Of a stretch of 64,000 nucleotides of DNA, positions 32,817-64,000 are shown one piece after another. Position 1 is the first letter of the stretch. Every line of letters begins with the position of its first letter. The translations under genes and the position numbers were made by a program. The DNA comes from Raja brachyura (Eukaryota), in the NCBI GenBank assembly GCA_963514005.1, contig OY740781.1, positions 34,286,001 to 34,350,000 of the forward strand. Direction: 5' to 3'. Below the pieces are notes generated by a model that was not told where the DNA came from, ran no database searches, and saw nothing but the letters and a program-made list of their open reading frames with translations.

Positions 32817-34419
32817 CAGTGCCCTCCATAATGTTTGGGACAAAGACTCATCATTTATTTATTTGCCTCTGTACTCTATAATTGTAGAGACTTGTAATAG
32901 AATAAATCAACGGTGGTTAAAGTGCACATTGTCAGATTTTATTAAAGGCAATTTTTATACACTTTGTTTTCACCATGTGGAAATTTCAGCAGTGTTTATA
33001 CATAGTCCCCCCATTGTAATTGATCAGGTGATCAATGCCTCCTTAATGCAGGTATAAGAGAGCTCTCAGCACCTAGTCTTTCCTCCAGTCTTTCCATCAC
33101 CTTTGGAAACTTTTATTGCTGTTTATCAACATGAGGACCAAAAGTTGTGCCAATGAATGTCAAAGAAGCCATTAAGAGACTGAGAAACAAGAATAAAACT
33201 GTTAGAGACATCAGCCAAACCTTAGGCTTACCAAAATCAACTGTTTGGAACATTATTAAGAAGAAAGAGAGCACTGGTGAGCTTACTAATTGCAAAGGGA
33301 CTGGCAGGCCAAGGAAACTCACCACAGCTGATGACAGACAAATTCTCTCCATAATAAAAAATAAAAAAAAAACACCTGTCCGACAGATCAGAAACACTCT
33401 TCAGGAGTCAGGTGTGGATTTGTCAATGACCACTGTCCGCAGAAGGCTTCATGAACAGAAATACAGAGGCTACACTGCAAGATGCAAACCACTGGTTAGC
33501 TGCAAAAATAGGATGGCCAGGTTACAGTTTGCCAAGAAGTACATAAAAAGAGCAAACACAGTTCTGGAAAAAGGTCTTGTGGACAGATGAGATGAAGATT
33601 AACTTATATCAGAGTGATGGCAAGAGAAAGGTATGGAGGAGTGAAGGAACTGCCCAAGATCCAAAGCATACCACCACATCTGTGAAACACCGTGGCGGGG
33701 ATGTTATGGCCTAGGAATGTATGGCTGCTGAAGGTACTGGCTCACCTAACTTCATTAATGAAAGAACTGCTGATGGTAGCAGCATAATGAATTCTGAAGT
33801 GTATAGACACATCCTATCTGCTCAATTTCAAACAAATGCCTCAAAACTCATTGGCCAGTGGTTCATTCCACAGCAAGACAATGATCCCAAACATACTGCT
33901 AAAGCAACAAAGGAGTTTTTCAAAGTTAAAAATTGTCCATTCTTGAGTGGCCAAGTCAATCACCTGATCTGAACCCAATTGAGCATGCCTTTTATATGCT
34001 GAAGAGAAAACTGAAGGGTACCATCCCCCAAAACACGCATAAGCCAAAGATGGCTGCAATACAGGCCTGGCAGAGCACCTCCAGAGAAGACACCCAGCAA
34101 CTGGTAATGTCCATGAATCGTAGACTTTAAGCAGTCATTGCATGCAAAGGATATGCAACAAAATACTAAATATGACTACTTTCATTTACATGACATTGCT
34201 GTGTCCCAAACATCCTGGTGCCCAGAAATGGGGGACTATGTATAAACACTGCTGTAATTTTTACATGGTGAAACCAAAATGTATAAATATGTCCTTTATT
34301 AAAATCTGACAATTTGCACTTTAATCACTGATTTTTTCTATAACAAATCTCAAATTGCGGAATAAGGAGGCAAATAAATAAATGATGGGTCTTTGTCCCA
34401 AACATTATGGAGGGCACTG
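32817..34419 (+). mobile_element. Tc1 (DD34E, IR/DR type) DNA transposon, inactivated
   Basis: TA TSD at 32815-16 and 34420-21; matching termini CAGTGCCCTCCATAATGTTTGGGACAAAGAC; left TIR lacks the inner DR; same family as 23453-25112. Confidence 0.95.
33131..34169 (+). pseudogene. Tc1 transposase pseudogene
   Basis: Paired-like HTH (TVRDISQTLGLPKSTVWNII), GRPRK, WTDEMK, QQDNDPKH, SPDLNPIEH spread over several frames. Confidence 0.9.
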
Positions 34420-34638
34420 TAAGTTTGAACAAGGATCACAGGAGCTGTCAGAAAGCAGTTCTACTAGCTATGTCATTGTATTGCATCAAGCAGGGATTAG
34501 GCTCAGAAGGAAGCACTTAAGATGAGAGAGTAGATACAAAAACTCTCAGAAAAAAAAGAAAAAGCATTAAAACATGGAATAGGAAGTAGTGAGACAGAAC
34601 TAGAGTAAGAGAGAATACTGCAAGATACTCTTACAGTG

Positions 34639-35952: not shown

Positions 35953-36902
35953 ATATTACATTGTTGATTTTCCTTTAACTTCAAGAATAAGCAACTGTAA
36001 ATGAGATTGGTATGAGAAGACGCACTCTCTTGAGCAAGGATCCAAGTAGATCAGCTCTCATCGAATGGAGCTGAATAAGAATCAAGGTTTTGAAGGGATT
36101 CAAGATAATTGTAATAGTGCAGCATGAAGTAAATTTTTAATATTTTGTAATAGTTATGGAAAAACATATTAGAAATGAATATTGTCTTTGGGCTTTTTGA
36201 TCAATCTTGGTCCTTCATGGACAAAATTAATTTTTCATAGCTGTTTCTACTTATAACAATTTGAAACCCAAATCTTGAATATTGGGCAGAAAATGCATGA
36301 TATCAATGACTAATTTTTCATTGCACATTCACACACACACACACTGCTCGGCTGTCTTAGCTAAAGACAGAGGTAATTGAATAGTTTATCTTTGTATGAT
36401 GGTTCCAGAACATTATGCCAAAGAAAATAGTAGTTGGAGAATTTATAAGGTAGGATGTATGAATAGAAAGACATCCTAAGGTTTTTCTTAATCTATTACT
36501 GAAGACTGGGAGGACACTTTGCAGGATCTTTCCTAAGATTAATCGGGTTTATGGAACAGAGCAAATGACTTGGGAAAAACAGTGTTTCATGGGCTGACCG
36601 GATTTTCTTTATGTTAACTTCTCAAACATTAATGTATGAATAGCAGTAACTATTTGGTTAGTTGTTTTATGTGAGGCTGTCAAATTCCTGTTTAAGTAGA
36701 AAAGTTTAAACTTTCCCAGTCGAACCCAGAAGGAAGAGAAAGCTAAGATTGAAGAAAATTCCTCATGATCTATCAAAGAGGAATGCAATGTGAGTGATAT
36801 GAATCAGCTACAATTCATATGGATGTTGATGCTACATAAATAACTGCTTCTCACTATGAAACTCCAAACATTTAGCTTTTTTGTACAGGTAACTATGAGC
36901 CT

Positions 36903-37126
36903 GTGTAGAAAGGTAATGCAGGTGCTGATTTAAACCGAAGATACACACAAAATGCTGGAGTAACTCAGTAGGATAGGCAGCTTGTCTGGAGAGAAGGAAT
37001 GGGTGATGTTTTGGGTCACGCTTCTTCAGACTGATCTGAAGTCTGAAGAAGGGCCTCAACCCGAAACGTCAACCATTCCTTCTCTCCAGAGATGCTGCCT
37101 GTCCCGCTGAGTTACTCCAGCATTTT
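36903..37126. mobile_element. Palindromic Penelope-tail element with hammerhead-like core and 14-bp TSD
   Basis: GTAACTATGAGCCT at 36889-36902 and 37127-37140; ~85-bp inverted arms; core CTGAAGA at 37043-49 and GAAACGTC at 37063-70. Confidence 0.85.
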
Positions 37127-37214
37127 GTAACTATGAGCCTCCCAGATTCCAATCAAATTTTAAATCCACGTTGCAGTTAATGTTGATATATCTCAGCTGT
37201 TGGTATTAATAGAT

Positions 37215-37545
37215 TTAGTTCCCAATGTTGGGCGAGTCCAGAACCAGCGACCACAGTCTTAGAATAAAGGGGAGGCCATTTAAGACTGAGTCGAGAAAAA
37301 ACTTAATTACCCAGAGAGTTGTGAATTTGTGGAATTCCCTGTCACAGAGGGCAGTGGAGGCCAAATCTCTGGATGGATTTAAGAGAGAGTTAGATAGAGC
37401 TCTAGGGGCTAGTGGAATCAAGGGATATGGGGAGAAGGCAGGCATGGGTTATTGATTGGGGACGATCAGCCATGAATGGCGGTGCTGGCTCGAAGGGCCG
37501 AAGGGCCGAATGACCTCCTCCTGCATCTATATTCTATGTTTCTAT
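37215..37545 (+). mobile_element. CR1 LINE 3' fragment
   Basis: SRTSDHSLRIKGRPFKTESRKNLITQRVVNLWNSLSQRAVEA...FKRELD plus ttctatgtttctat tail. Confidence 0.9.
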
Positions 37546-37644
37546 TTATATTCTTCAAATTTAACATTATCATCAATGCGGCATTGATGATAAGTGATAA
37601 CTAAATTCAATTGAGGCAAATGGGAATTATGACTTAAGAAAACA

Positions 37645-37860
37645 GACACACACGGAACTAAAGATCCTGGAACCTTAAGCACAACATAAGGTACTGAAGG
37701 AACTCAGCAGGTCAGGTGGCACCTGTGCAGGAATGGACAGATGATGTATTGGGTTGAGACCTTTCTTCAGACTGAAGAAGGGCCCCAAACTGAAACGCCG
37801 TTTGCTCATTCCCTCCACAATTGCTGACTAACCCATTGAATTCCTCCAGAACTTTGTTTG
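37645..37860. mobile_element. Older palindromic Penelope-tail element
   Basis: Centre ctttcttcag-a-ctgaagaagggccccaaactgaaacg with diverged inverted arms. Confidence 0.65.
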
Positions 37861-43780: not shown

Positions 43781-44017
43781 GCAGAAGGGATTCATAAACT
43801 ACAAGTCTATTTCTACAACATGGAAATATGCCTTTGGCCTTATTCATCCTTGCCAACCAAGTTGCTTACCTGAGGTCCATTTGCCCATTGGCCCATATCC
43901 CTTTGCCATACTCTCTAAAGTAGTTTTAATTAGGTCAAGAAACCAATGAAATTTGAGCTCTTTTCAATGGAACAGAAATATTTAGAAGATTTAATACAGA
44001 GATGTTCCAAAGTTTTG

Positions 44018-44219
44018 TGTAGGAAGGAACTGCAGATGCTGTCTTAAACTGAAGGTGGACACAATATGCTGGGGTAACTCAGAGGGACAGACAGCATCTC
44101 TGGAGAGAAGGAATGGGTGAGGCTTCGGGTCAAAGAAGGGTGTCGACCTGAAATGTCATCCATTCCTTCTCTCCAGATATGCTGCCTGTCCCGCTGAGTT
44201 ACTCCAGCTTTTTGTGTCC
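44018..44219. mobile_element. Palindromic Penelope-tail element with 16-bp TSD (1 mismatch)
   Basis: ATG(T/A)TCCAAAGTTTTG at 44002-44017 and 44220-44235; arms invert at ~44132. Confidence 0.85.
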
Positions 44220-45221
44220 ATGATCCAAAGTTTTGATGGATCTTGACAAGGAAATTCAAGGTAAGTTGCTTCCACTGGGTTGAGAATTAATGTCTAGGGA
44301 ACGAGGGGAAAGGTTAATTTTAAATCCAAAAATAGAATTGTAGGCATCAGCTAACAAGGCGCAGAGTACCTAACCCGAAACAGCAGTGAAACCAGAAACC
44401 CTACAGCTTTTACAAGGGAAGTGGAATTTATTTAAATGATATGCAGGTGAATGAGACCGACCAGATAGCTCTCTCTGCGAGCCAGCACTGCTGCAGTGGA
44501 AGTAATTGCTTCCTTCTGCACTAAAGAATTCTAAGAATTGATGGCAACAAGGCTTGCTTCATTATTTTAGTAACCACAGAAGATAGATATTCAGTCCATT
44601 GTAACCATGCCAGCCATTTGTGAGGGAAAGCAAAATGTGGAATAGATGTAATATAATCTAATCAGGATTTGAGGGGACCTTGGATTACTAGCTCGTTAAA
44701 CTTTTTCAAACTGATAAATTTATGGTTGGTCCGATCGTAGCTACTAAAAACGCCAAAGTCAAAAATGATGAGTAAAGCAAACAAGTCAACTAATATCGTG
44801 TAGCATAACATTCTATGCATTGTGAATTAGCTGGCTCAATTTTCCAGAGGGTCCAAAGAAAAATAAACATATTTATCCTGGTCTTATGTTCAATAACATG
44901 TTGAATGCTTTGGAAAAAAAACCTCCGGATTTATGGCCTCCCAAATTGATTTCGTTTGGTTGAAAGAATGTTCAATGGGAGTGGCTTTTATTTTAAAGAA
45001 TAAGCTTATTCTGCTGTACAGCAATACATAAAATATATGAAAGTTCTTACAGTGATTCACGTAAATTGATAATTATAGCAATATGGTATTTATCAAATTG
45101 GAATATTCTGAAAAAGGGATTTGTAGAGGTTTTAACAAAATTGTTTAAAAAAAATTGATAAGCACACATAGCCAAGCTGAAAAATGTCAAATGGCAATTT
45201 AGAAAAAACATGAATGAAAAT

Positions 45222-45365
45222 CAAAAAAACTGCAAATGCTAGAAACCGTTAGCAGGTCAGACAGCATCCATGAAGGTCTGAAGATTCTTTGATTTGAAAC
45301 GTAAACTCCATTTCTCTTTCCACAGATGCTGCCTGGCCTGTTGAGAATATCAAATATTTTCTGCT
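45222..45365. mobile_element. Old palindromic Penelope-tail element
   Basis: agcaggtcagacagcatc ... gtctgaagattctttgatttgaaacgtaa ... gatgctgcctggcctgttgag. Confidence 0.55.
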
Positions 45366-61207: not shown

Positions 61208-61486
61208 TTGTATGCTAGACAATGTAGGATAGCAAGATGTGCTTCCCAAATGAATGAGTGGGATTTTATGACAACCCTGTAGTTTCATGGACAACATCAT
61301 TGATAAAAGCTTTGAAAAATGCAATCCAGGTTTATTTAAGTAAATGCAAACGACTTAACTACAAGCGGGAGATTGGACCAATACACAAGGTCATTGGACT
61401 AGACTTCAGGATTGTTCATCCAGAAACATGTTCATATTGTTAATTGGCCACAATGTTAGCACTACAACTCCCTCTAGGCTACCACA

Positions 61487-61625
61487 GCCGCACCCGCCTC
61501 ACCTTGCATCGCCGCCGGACCGGGCCTACAGAGCATCGGCGCCGCACCCGCCTCACCTTGCATCGCCGCCGGACCGGGGCCCCCCGAACATGGCCGCCGC
61601 ACCGCACCCCACTCATCTCGCCGCC
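61487..61625 (+). repeat. 54-bp GC-rich tandem repeat at the 5' end of the Penelope ORF
   Basis: gccgcacccgcctcaccttgcatcgccgccggaccggg at 61487 and 61541; degenerate third copy at ~61600. Confidence 0.85.
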
Positions 61626-64000
61626 TCACCGGGCGGGCTGAACCTTGCTGCCCCACCGACCACTTCGCCCACCGGGACCACCCACGCATCGCCCGCCGAC
61701 CCCGACTTCACTGCCCGCGGACTCCTACCTTCGGGCCCGCCGACCCACGACACTCCACCGCCCTCCAGCAGCCCGCAGCCGTCGCCTCACCTACAGACTG
61801 GACAGTGCAGCGGGCCTGAAGCCTCCACGTTGCTCACTCCTCCCACCACTCTGTTGCTAACGGCACTGGGTCCTAGTGCCCGTCTCCCCAGCCCCGGTGA
61901 CCTCAGTGGCTATTCCACTGGGTCTTCCCCATTCCCCTCCTACCATGTAACCCCTGCTCTTTCACACCCACATCACAGCCCCCATATCCCCCCACCCCCT
62001 GACCACCCTCCACCCCCCCACCACACTACACCCCGTCCTCAGTCCACTCACCTGCCTTCCTCCAGCCACAACCCCCATCCCTGCCGTGTGTTCACCATCC
62101 CCCCGGATCTCCCCCTCTCCGACACCGAAAGGTCGGTCCTCAGCAGAGGTCTTACCTTTGTCCCCCTCCGTCCCCACCTCAATGAGTTCCGTGCCCACCA
62201 CGACTTGGAGCTCTTCTACCGTCGCCTCTGCCTCACAGCGTTTTTCCACGGGAACAAGTCCTCGCCCCCCACTGATGATCCCTTTTCCTGTCTCCCACGT
62301 ACCCCCTCCTCGTGGACCCCCCCTCGTGGCCCTCCAGCTTTAGAACTATTTATACAAAACTGCCGTCGGGACATCAACCGCCTCGACTTCTCCACTCCCC
62401 TGTCTCACTCCAATCTCTCCCCCTCCGAACGTACTGCCATCGACTCACTCCGCAACAACCCAGACTGGGTTATCAAACCCGCCGACAAGGGAGGTGCCGT
62501 GGTAGTCTGGCGCGTCGATCTCTACAAAGCAGAGGCCACGCGCCAACTCTCGGACACCTCCTCCTACTTACCCCTGGACCATGACCCCACTGACGAGCAC
62601 CAGGCCACCATCTCGAGCACCATAACCGGCTTCATTAACTCCGGCTCCCTACCCCCCCGAGCCTCCAACCTCATCGTTTCCCAGCCCCGCACAGCCCGAT
62701 TTTACCTTCTCCCCAAAATCCACAAACCCGACTGCCCCGGCAGACCCATTGTCTCTGCCTGTTCGTGCCCCACCGAACACATTTCCACATACCTTGACTC
62801 CATCCTATCCCCCTTTGTTAAATCCCTCCCCACCTATGTTCAAGACACCTCAGACACTCTCCGTCGGCTCCGCACATTCCGTTGTCCAGGCCCCCATCCT
62901 CTCATCTTCACCATGGACGTCCAGTCACTATACACCTGCATCCCCCACCAGGATGGTCTCAAAGCCCTCCGGTACTTCCTCGACCAGAGGAGCAACCCAT
63001 ACCCATCCACTGACACCCTCCTCCGCCTAGCGGAGTTGGTCCTTACCCTAAACAACTTCTCTTTTGACTCCTCCCATTTCCTCCAAACACAAGGCGTAGC
63101 TATGGGCACACGCATGGGCCCTAGCTACGCCTGCCTCTTTGTCGGGTACGTCGAACAATCTTTGTTCTCGACGTACCAGGGCCCCACCCCCGACCTTTAC
63201 CTCCGTTACATTGACGACTGCTTTGGTGTCACCTCCTGCACCCACGCAGAACTGACTGACTTTATCCATTTCACCACCAACTTCCATCCGGCACTCAAAT
63301 ATACTTGGACCATTTCCGACATTTCCCTACCATTCCTTGACCTCACCATCTCTATTGCAGGTGACACACTCCTGACTGACATCCACTACAAACCAACTGA
63401 CTCCCACAGCTACCTGGACTACTCTTCCTCCCACCCTGCTTCCTGTAAGGACTCCATCCCCTATTCCCAATTCATCCGACTACGCCGCATCTGCTCCCAG
63501 GATGACGTGTTCCACACCAGGTCATCGCAAATGTCCTCGTTCTTCAGAGAACGGGGTTTCCCCTCCCCCACTATCGATGAGGCTCGCACCAGGGTCTCCT
63601 CCATACCTCGCAACACTGCCCTCTCTCCCCATTCCCCCACTCACAACAAGGGCCGAGTCCCCCTGGTCCTCACCTTTCACCCCACCAGCCAGCGCATACA
63701 ACAGATAGTCCTCCGCCAGTTTCGCCACCTCCAACGTGACCCCTCCACTCGCCACATCTTCCCATCTCCCCCCCTATCTGCCTTCCGCAAAGACCGCTCC
63801 CTCCGCAACTCCCTCGTCAATTCTTCCCTTCCCTCCTGCTCCACTCCTTCCCCGGGCACTTTCCCTTGCAACCGCAAGAGATGCTACACTTGTTCCTTCA
63901 CCTCCCCCATCCACTCCTTTCAGGGACCCAAGCAGTCATTCCAAGTCCGACAGAGGTTCACCTGCACCTCCTCCAACCTCGTCTACTGCATCCGTTGCTC
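61590..64000 (+). CDS. Penelope-like element (Neptune-type) RT/GIY-YIG polyprotein, open frame, 3' truncated by the window edge
   Basis: Hand translation of frame +3 has no stop from 61359 to the window end. ATG in Kozak context at 61590 (alternative 61428). Motifs: IKPADKGGAVV, FYLLPKIHK..GRPIVS, TMDVQSLYT, QGVAMGTRMGP, YLRYIDD (YIDD 63207-18), YKPTD, CNRKRCYTC linker, TCTSSNLVYCIRC. Confidence 0.95.
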   Translation, partial: MAAAPHPTHLAASPGGLNLAAPPTTSPTGTTHASPADPDFTARGLLPSGPPTHDTPPPSSSPQPSPHLQTGQCSGPEASTLLTPPTTLLLTALGPSARLPSPGDLSGYSTGSSPFPSYHVTPALSHPHHSPHIPPPPDHPPPPHHTTPRPQSTHLPSSSHNPHPCRVFTIPPDLPLSDTERSVLSRGLTFVPLRPHLNEFRAHHDLELFYRRLCLTAFFHGNKSSPPTDDPFSCLPRTPSSWTPPRGPPALELFIQNCRRDINRLDFSTPLSHSNLSPSERTAIDSLRNNPDWVIKPADKGGAVVVWRVDLYKAEATRQLSDTSSYLPLDHDPTDEHQATISSTITGFINSGSLPPRASNLIVSQPRTARFYLLPKIHKPDCPGRPIVSACSCPTEHISTYLDSILSPFVKSLPTYVQDTSDTLRRLRTFRCPGPHPLIFTMDVQSLYTCIPHQDGLKALRYFLDQRSNPYPSTDTLLRLAELVLTLNNFSFDSSHFLQTQGVAMGTRMGPSYACLFVGYVEQSLFSTYQGPTPDLYLRYIDDCFGVTSCTHAELTDFIHFTTNFHPALKYTWTISDISLPFLDLTISIAGDTLLTDIHYKPTDSHSYLDYSSSHPASCKDSIPYSQFIRLRRICSQDDVFHTRSSQMSSFFRERGFPSPTIDEARTRVSSIPRNTALSPHSPTHNKGRVPLVLTFHPTSQRIQQIVLRQFRHLQRDPSTRHIFPSPPLSAFRKDRSLRNSLVNSSLPSCSTPSPGTFPCNRKRCYTCSFTSPIHSFQGPKQSFQVRQRFTCTSSNLVYCIRC

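Follow-up and report, generated by a model that had tools for sequence, protein, structure and literature searches.

How a short palindrome with ribozyme-like motifs facing away from each other came to lie between perfect direct repeats is the question raised by positions 36889-37140 of the 64,000-nucleotide stretch of Raja brachyura DNA analysed here (the window, C1:34286001-34350000). Very probably, the unit consists of two ribozyme-bearing ends of a Penelope-like element (PLE) joined head to head, and was made anew in a single insertion. An exact 14-bp direct repeat, present at 36889-36902 and 37127-37140 and taken to be a target-site duplication (TSD), encloses 224 bp. Two inverted stretches, one of 70 nt at 89% identity (36947-37016 and 37059-37128) and one of 12 nt at 100% (37021-37032 and 37040-37051), together give a stem of approximately 85 bp, while about 44 additional bases on the left arm (36903-36946) remain unpaired. 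The motif CTGAAGAAG faces outward on both strands, at 37043 (+) and 37029 (-). An earlier reading made from the sequence alone had described a 224-bp unit with arms of this length, exact 14-bp duplications and the outward motif, and the repeat and inverted-arm comparisons bear it out in each respect. The RNA fold predicted for the unit has an energy of -150 kcal/mol (z -18.1), a stability reached by 0 of 200 shuffles, and the two arms are 11% diverged from each other.

The long, tailed arm (36903-37032, minus strand) corresponds to the last ~130 bp of a PLE pLTR, running from where the hammerhead begins to the end of its tail. The short, tail-less arm (37040-37126, plus strand) corresponds to the last 87 bp of the same pLTR end, halts at approximately position 85 and has 2 nt of microhomology with the start of the TSD. 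Between them lies a 7-nt junction (37033-37039) built from short arm-start pieces. Sequence, fold and the motif definition given in PMC4209133 point to a minimal type I hammerhead core in the right arm (37043-37070, plus strand), composed of CUGAAGA, one extra base, stem II, GAAA, a palindromic ACGU in the position of helix III, and UC. Its helix I is mismatched and, in a read-through RNA, the core is predicted to be paired with the mirror arm. Ribozyme-like cores had been claimed for both sides of the centre; only the right one is intact, the hammerhead of the long arm (37004-37029, minus strand) being broken by a mutated GAAA box and a deletion in stem II. An Rfam scan of the 64-kb window gave 0 matches at the gathering score. 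The likeness to the minimal hammerheads of PLE pLTRs described in PMC4209133 extends to the core boxes, the extra base before stem II, the G-C closing pair and the palindromic ACGU replacing helix III. Unlike those hammerheads, helix I is only ~2 bp here, and the cores face apart, making a tandem dimer on one RNA impossible. In Schistosoma, dual minimal hammerheads are found on opposite strands, 100-700 bp apart (PMC4209133).

The identity of the parent element was approached with an arm profile made from 26 long arms taken from the top genome matches. Single arms found by this profile have a common upstream sequence that runs into GIY-YIG coding sequence, and older subfamilies likewise extend upstream into PLE 3' sequence. 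The window itself contains a young, 5'-truncated PLE of autonomous type (61481-64000, plus strand, continuing to ~64.6 kb), with an uninterrupted open frame of 970 codons (61359-64268) that carries RT and then GIY-YIG motifs. The arm in which this element ends lies just beyond the window (L149:520-616), belongs to a younger subfamily and is 82% identical to the right arm of the unit at 36903-37126; the 5' part of the element is matched at 40 other places with 92-99% identity. In L233, a full-length PLE, a 3.9-kb body with a 973-aa frame is flanked by one arm on each side (200-329 and 4240-4368); its Pfam matches (RVT_1, E 2e-4; GIY-YIG, E 1.4e-3) are both weak and below the curated cut-offs. 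L233 also has an additional upstream frame of 247 codons. The arms of the 36903-37126 unit are 74-82% identical to the pLTR end of the young PLE. Their subfamily is older than the intact PLE that was found, which is thus not their own autonomous partner. A Cys-rich, zinc-finger-like linker between RT and EN is the feature by which membership of the Neptune/Nematis clade was assessed; C-x4-C-x2-C is visible in the frame of the window PLE, and a pattern search on L233 gave no match. Another PLE, located at chromosome ends and accounting for the bulk of the GIY-YIG family search matches, was rejected as the partner, as it is without the arm. In all subfamilies, a pyrimidine tract followed by CTGAC or CTAAC and CAG, resembling a 3' splice site, directly precedes the hammerhead (e.g., L149:500-525 and L233:180-205). 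In the D. virilis Penelope, the end of an intron abuts helix I (PMC4209133).

A typical PLE insertion is an inverted, 5'-truncated copy with a tail on one side and a TSD (PMC8557442, PMC3846280, PMC2377424). Judged by its sequence, the unit at 36903-37126 joins, head to head, the terminal 87 bp and the terminal 130 bp of the pLTR of an endonuclease-containing (EN+) PLE: it has an inverted, 5'-truncated head-to-head copy, a one-sided tail of ~44 bp and a TSD around the whole. The EN+ PLE insertions described for Adineta vaga Pen2a (PMC3846280), in PMC8557442 and for D. virilis Penelope (PMC2377424) similarly combine a head-to-head inverted pLTR, a 30-40-bp tail at one end only, a TSD of ~9-14 bp and a palindromic junction. 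They differ from the pairs in this genome, where both copies are reduced to ~90-135 bp, lack ORFs and are present in very high numbers (estimated below). A literature search, thin on subscription journals and made without repeat databases, found no paper on ORF-less head-to-head PLE stumps in cartilaginous fish. As such the layout is not new, and the unit is ordinary as an element; it is useful as part of a large natural record of the PLE integration step.

Five further fold-backs in the window had been likened to the unit. Three are good head-to-head pairs, at 17077-17282 (earlier 17079-17282; same subfamily group as 36903-37126, z -11.8, TSD not found), at 23017-23173 (earlier 23031-23159; long right arm internally deleted, z -3.1, exact 14-bp TSD) and at 44006-44235 (earlier 44018-44219; z -12.8, TSD of 12 bp exact or 16 bp with one mismatch). 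The pair at 37654-37860 (earlier 37645-37860; z -3.5, TSD not found) is old and diverged. The candidate at 45222-45365 is weak, having z -1.7 and no convincing TSD, and the arm profile did not call a pair there. The long, variable TSDs ascribed to all of these sites are therefore found at three of the six, including 36889, and not at the other three. Two other repeats were seen in the window: an abundant short family at 37285-37550, between the 36889 unit and the old pair at 37654, and a 1.66-kb repeat at 23451-25112 and 32828-34421, in inverted orientation and 86% identical, with direct terminal repeats of ~215 bp.

Abundance was estimated from a blind sample of 166 stretches of 10 kb (1.66 Mb), placed at round coordinates on large contigs and leaving out the window, the top matches and 12 targeted picks (L149-L160). 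The sample contained 667 arms in 514 clusters, with 116 simple head-to-head pairs; the arm family makes up 3.9% of the sampled bases, and 377 of the clusters are single arms. Among 153 neighbouring arms at most 60 bp apart, 128 are head-to-head, 10 tail-to-tail and 15 tandem. Assuming that the sample is representative, extrapolation to the 2.7-Gb genome gives ~190,000 pairs (bootstrap 155,000-226,000) and ~840,000 loci. Four of the 116 pairs share flanks, representing one palindrome copied as cargo inside a DNA-transposon MITE. The carrier, presumably Kolobok-like, is a non-autonomous DNA transposon of ~690 bp with ~60-bp inverted ends, lying between TTAA-like sites (L059:6295-6980, L067:5955-6645, L095:3062-3750, L194:3000-3595). 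Non-LTR retrozymes (bioRxiv 10.64898/2026.07.22.740005) are likewise non-coding, pLTR-derived and equipped with a type I hammerhead, but as described there they form head-to-tail tandem arrays, in contrast to the head-to-head, TSD-flanked arrangement and the small share of tandem neighbours seen here. The pairs are not made of tandem head-to-tail units each with a hammerhead.

Do such pairs result from single insertions? TSD scores of at least 9 were obtained for 27 of 117 pairs, compared with 0-4 in ten shuffles. The duplications measure 9-18 bp, with a mode of 13-14, in 39 TSD-bearing pairs from the blind sample, the window and the top matches (one counted twice). About three in four pairs have no detectable TSD, which is assumed to reflect age. 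A young pair, L164:1271-1507, whose arms are 1% apart, provides an empty site: in a contig of organism D, position 1256 is followed directly by 1508, the unit and one copy of the TSD being absent. At the same locus, organism A carries the unit, a contig of organism C also departs at 1256, and organism B has little coverage. The insertion as a single TSD-flanked event is thus borne out by the TSD around both arms and by the empty site at this other locus. A search for the empty site of the 36889 unit among the four organisms compared found none; the left junction is present in all of them, so the insertion predates their split. There, each of the four has contigs that leave the unique flanking sequence and continue for 30-56 nt within the left arm. 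Looking for empty orthologous sites, as had been recommended, therefore succeeded for the whole young L164 unit, absent in organism D, and not for 36889.

It is extremely unlikely that the two arms were inserted independently, or that the unit is a MITE or an artefact of assembly. Arms are abundant singly and, among the contigs listed, none spans the centre of the 36889 junction; yet one TSD encloses both arms, head-to-head neighbours outnumber tail-to-tail ones by 128 to 10, and both arms are missing together from the empty site at L164. Arms that are 11% diverged and a left junction found in four organisms also speak against these readings. The pairs had been said to look like MITEs without being MITEs, and this description holds: their ends are unequal, their TSDs vary from 9 to 18 bp and their junctions are diverse, whereas fixed terminal inverted ends, a fixed short TSD and copying as a unit are not seen. 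The sequence-only reading had left two origins in play, a product of the inverted-5' integration of PLEs and a self-propagating hairpin retroelement, and had proposed that junctions be compared among palindromic copies. In the second case, the entire hairpin RNA would be reverse-transcribed in trans and its junction inherited. In the sampled pairs the junctions proved diverse, with 70 classes distinguished among the 79 pairs that scored well; junction filler consists of arm-start pieces. The very high copy number and the recurrence of some junctions (classes of 6, 3, 2 and 2) would suit a propagating hairpin, as would the four exact genome occurrences of the 25-nt junction of 36903-37126. These four, however, span two subfamilies, with the long arm on the left in three and on the right in one; the same junction across subfamilies and arm orientations argues for recurrence, not descent. 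Half of the largest class (3 of 6) belongs to the DNA-transposon MITE. Arm-specific common mutations, another property of an inherited hairpin, are absent: in a comparison of long and short arms from 89 pairs, 0 of 94 columns were diagnostic beyond chance (smallest p 0.02, uncorrected). No A-to-I imprint of a hairpin RNA template was found either, A>G versus T>C showing no skew between arms (39/68 vs 49/67). The hairpin retroelement is already largely refuted for the bulk of the pairs and must be considered very improbable, while an origin by inverted-5' integration of PLEs is supported by the pLTR identity of the arm, the junction diversity and the empty site.

Accepting that a PLE makes the pairs de novo, the mirror arm could be a fold-back copy, produced when the first cDNA or an antisense template primes itself and the centre is later trimmed; self-priming on an antisense template has been proposed for rotifer PLEs (PMC3846280). 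The arms of a pair are indeed alike. Both belong to one subfamily in 74 of the 85 pairs that could be classified (22.2 expected), their distance is 0.169 compared with 0.231 between loci (100 of 120 pairs scorable), and both carry the same rare variants in 24 of 345 cases (9.8 expected), with private changes common to both arms in L083. Part of this similarity could be owed to gene conversion between the two arms. The arm-start pieces in the filler would also fit a fold-back, and the short arm could nest in the long one in 47 of 83 pairs. Against it, the tailed arm is the more 5'-truncated in 36 of the 83 pairs (the reverse holds in 16, and 31 are similar), so that neither arm is a copy of the other, unless they were later trimmed; in L060 and L072 the tail-less arm has 108-139 nt of upstream sequence absent from the tailed arm. 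Such non-nested arms could alternatively stem from later central deletions of the palindrome, and a junction that falls within the quasi-palindromic stem II could belong to either arm. Tail-less ends are also found on lone copies (209 of 362 single arms, the other 153 being tailed), which indicates that the tail-less end represents an independent start site. Microhomology at the short ends argues in the same direction: 24 of 38 short ends are flush with the TSD, and of these 19 have at least 1 nt (p 5e-8) and 12 at least 2 nt (p 7e-9) of microhomology; long ends could be scored in only 5 cases. A fold-back origin of the mirror arm is therefore judged unlikely.

The explanation that we prefer, and hold to be probable, is that a single PLE complex uses each of the two cut target ends as a primer, after which the two short cDNAs are joined. 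The GIY-YIG nuclease would cut the two target strands ~13-14 bp apart, and each 3' end, pairing over 1-4 nt, would prime reverse transcription, the first at the start site of the tail end and the second at an internal start site ~40 nt upstream. Both primings would probably share one RNA template or occur inside a dimeric complex. Both cDNAs would usually halt within ~10 nt of the 5' edge of the hammerhead, probably at the RNA 5' end or a strong stop; their ends would be joined, with microhomology or a short templated filler at the join, and after repair a palindrome and a TSD would remain. A bolder version, put forward tentatively as a real possibility still short of probable, is that the ~190,000 stumps integrated as run-off cDNAs: both primings, at the tail site and at the internal one, would use a single RNA, which the complex would copy as far as the RNA start at the hammerhead before joining the two products. 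The combination of a tailed with a tail-less arm, which the preferred scheme describes, is found in 83 of 113 pairs (55.6 expected, p 1e-7), the exceptions being 8 pairs with two tailed arms and 22 with two tail-less arms; the agreement of the arms in subfamily and their small distance count in favour of this scheme too. The same layout can include PLE body: in L081, which has a 14-bp TSD, one arm contains 1 kb of it, and in L234 the head-to-head join lies deep within two long PLE bodies. Hidden inverted stubs are not a general feature of single arms (13 of 248, with 13-14 of 248 in the control).

Twin priming of LINE-1 offers a parallel. There, too, priming on the RNA takes place from each of the target ends with the help of short microhomology, and an inversion inside one TSD results; different parts of the RNA are copied. 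Dual priming is common to both cases; here, the same stretch is copied twice. A closer experimental counterpart is the Anolis Poseidon PAc, whose protein cuts and extends both strands in vitro and has two RT start sites bounding the tail (PMC11167929). A dimer is predicted for it, and hammerhead cleavage is dispensable (PMC11167929). Poseidon PAc belongs to another clade and another host, and that work does not account for the inverted copy or for the coupling of tailed and tail-less ends (PMC11167929). The rules seen in the stumps correspond to what was observed in vitro, namely two start sites and priming on both strands (PMC11167929).

An intact hammerhead core is found in 135 of 359 arms that cover it, both cores are intact in 7 of 116 pairs, and conservation is barely higher in core columns than in others (0.945 compared with 0.924). 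Most arms halt within ~10 nt of the hammerhead 5' edge; a minority of single arms continue upstream. No pile-up of copy ends was found at the predicted cut site in arm profile coordinates, and hammerhead cleavage as the origin of copy 5' ends was rejected, as starts cluster at positions 1-10 and not at 36. On present evidence the hammerhead is inherited cargo, whose predicted cut site does not mark copy ends. The initiator consensus is YYANWYY, and the sequence at the halt site, the Inr-like TCAGTCT, can be read both as an initiator and as a splice acceptor. A cap-G test for an RNA start at TCAGTCT gave G in 14 of 20 non-C cases in the sample; genome-wide, it gave 3773 RG, 3573 RA, 1497 RT and 5825 RC, with A as common as G. 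No common spliced first exon was seen upstream of the acceptor-like CAG among single arms.

The origin of the inverted and tailed ends of PLEs has been described as undefined (PMC8557442). The stumps supply countable rules: a tailed with a tail-less arm, non-nesting, 1-4-nt microhomology, a 13-14-bp stagger and stops at the hammerhead edge. If the reading as run-off cDNAs is true, one mechanism would account for the inverted pLTR and one-sided tail of all EN+ PLEs, and the genome would have been seeded with a reservoir of 85-100-bp dsRNA stems resembling that of inverted Alus. If transcribed, the hairpins may rank among the major sources of dsRNA; in Drosophila, siRNAs arise from PLE inverted regions (PMC3681739). 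Such units are also prone to mis-annotation as MITEs.

The PLE of the chromosome ends, rejected above as the partner, is a second EN+ element in this genome. Telomere-linked PLEs are described as endonuclease-deficient in PMC8557442, and a literature search found no paper on a telomere-targeting EN+ PLE; this element is possibly of greater interest than the palindrome at 36889. It is very young, with a 760-aa frame containing RT and GIY-YIG and a hammerhead-like motif of its own, and is 31% identical to the window PLE. At many chromosome ends its copies are arranged in tandem, interleaved with tracts of TTAGGG and in constant orientation relative to the end; the loci (L129-L148, L158-L160) include C1:187.42-187.44 Mb, C8:89.33-89.40 Mb and the ends of C14, C17, C19, C21, C23, C24, C29 and C31.
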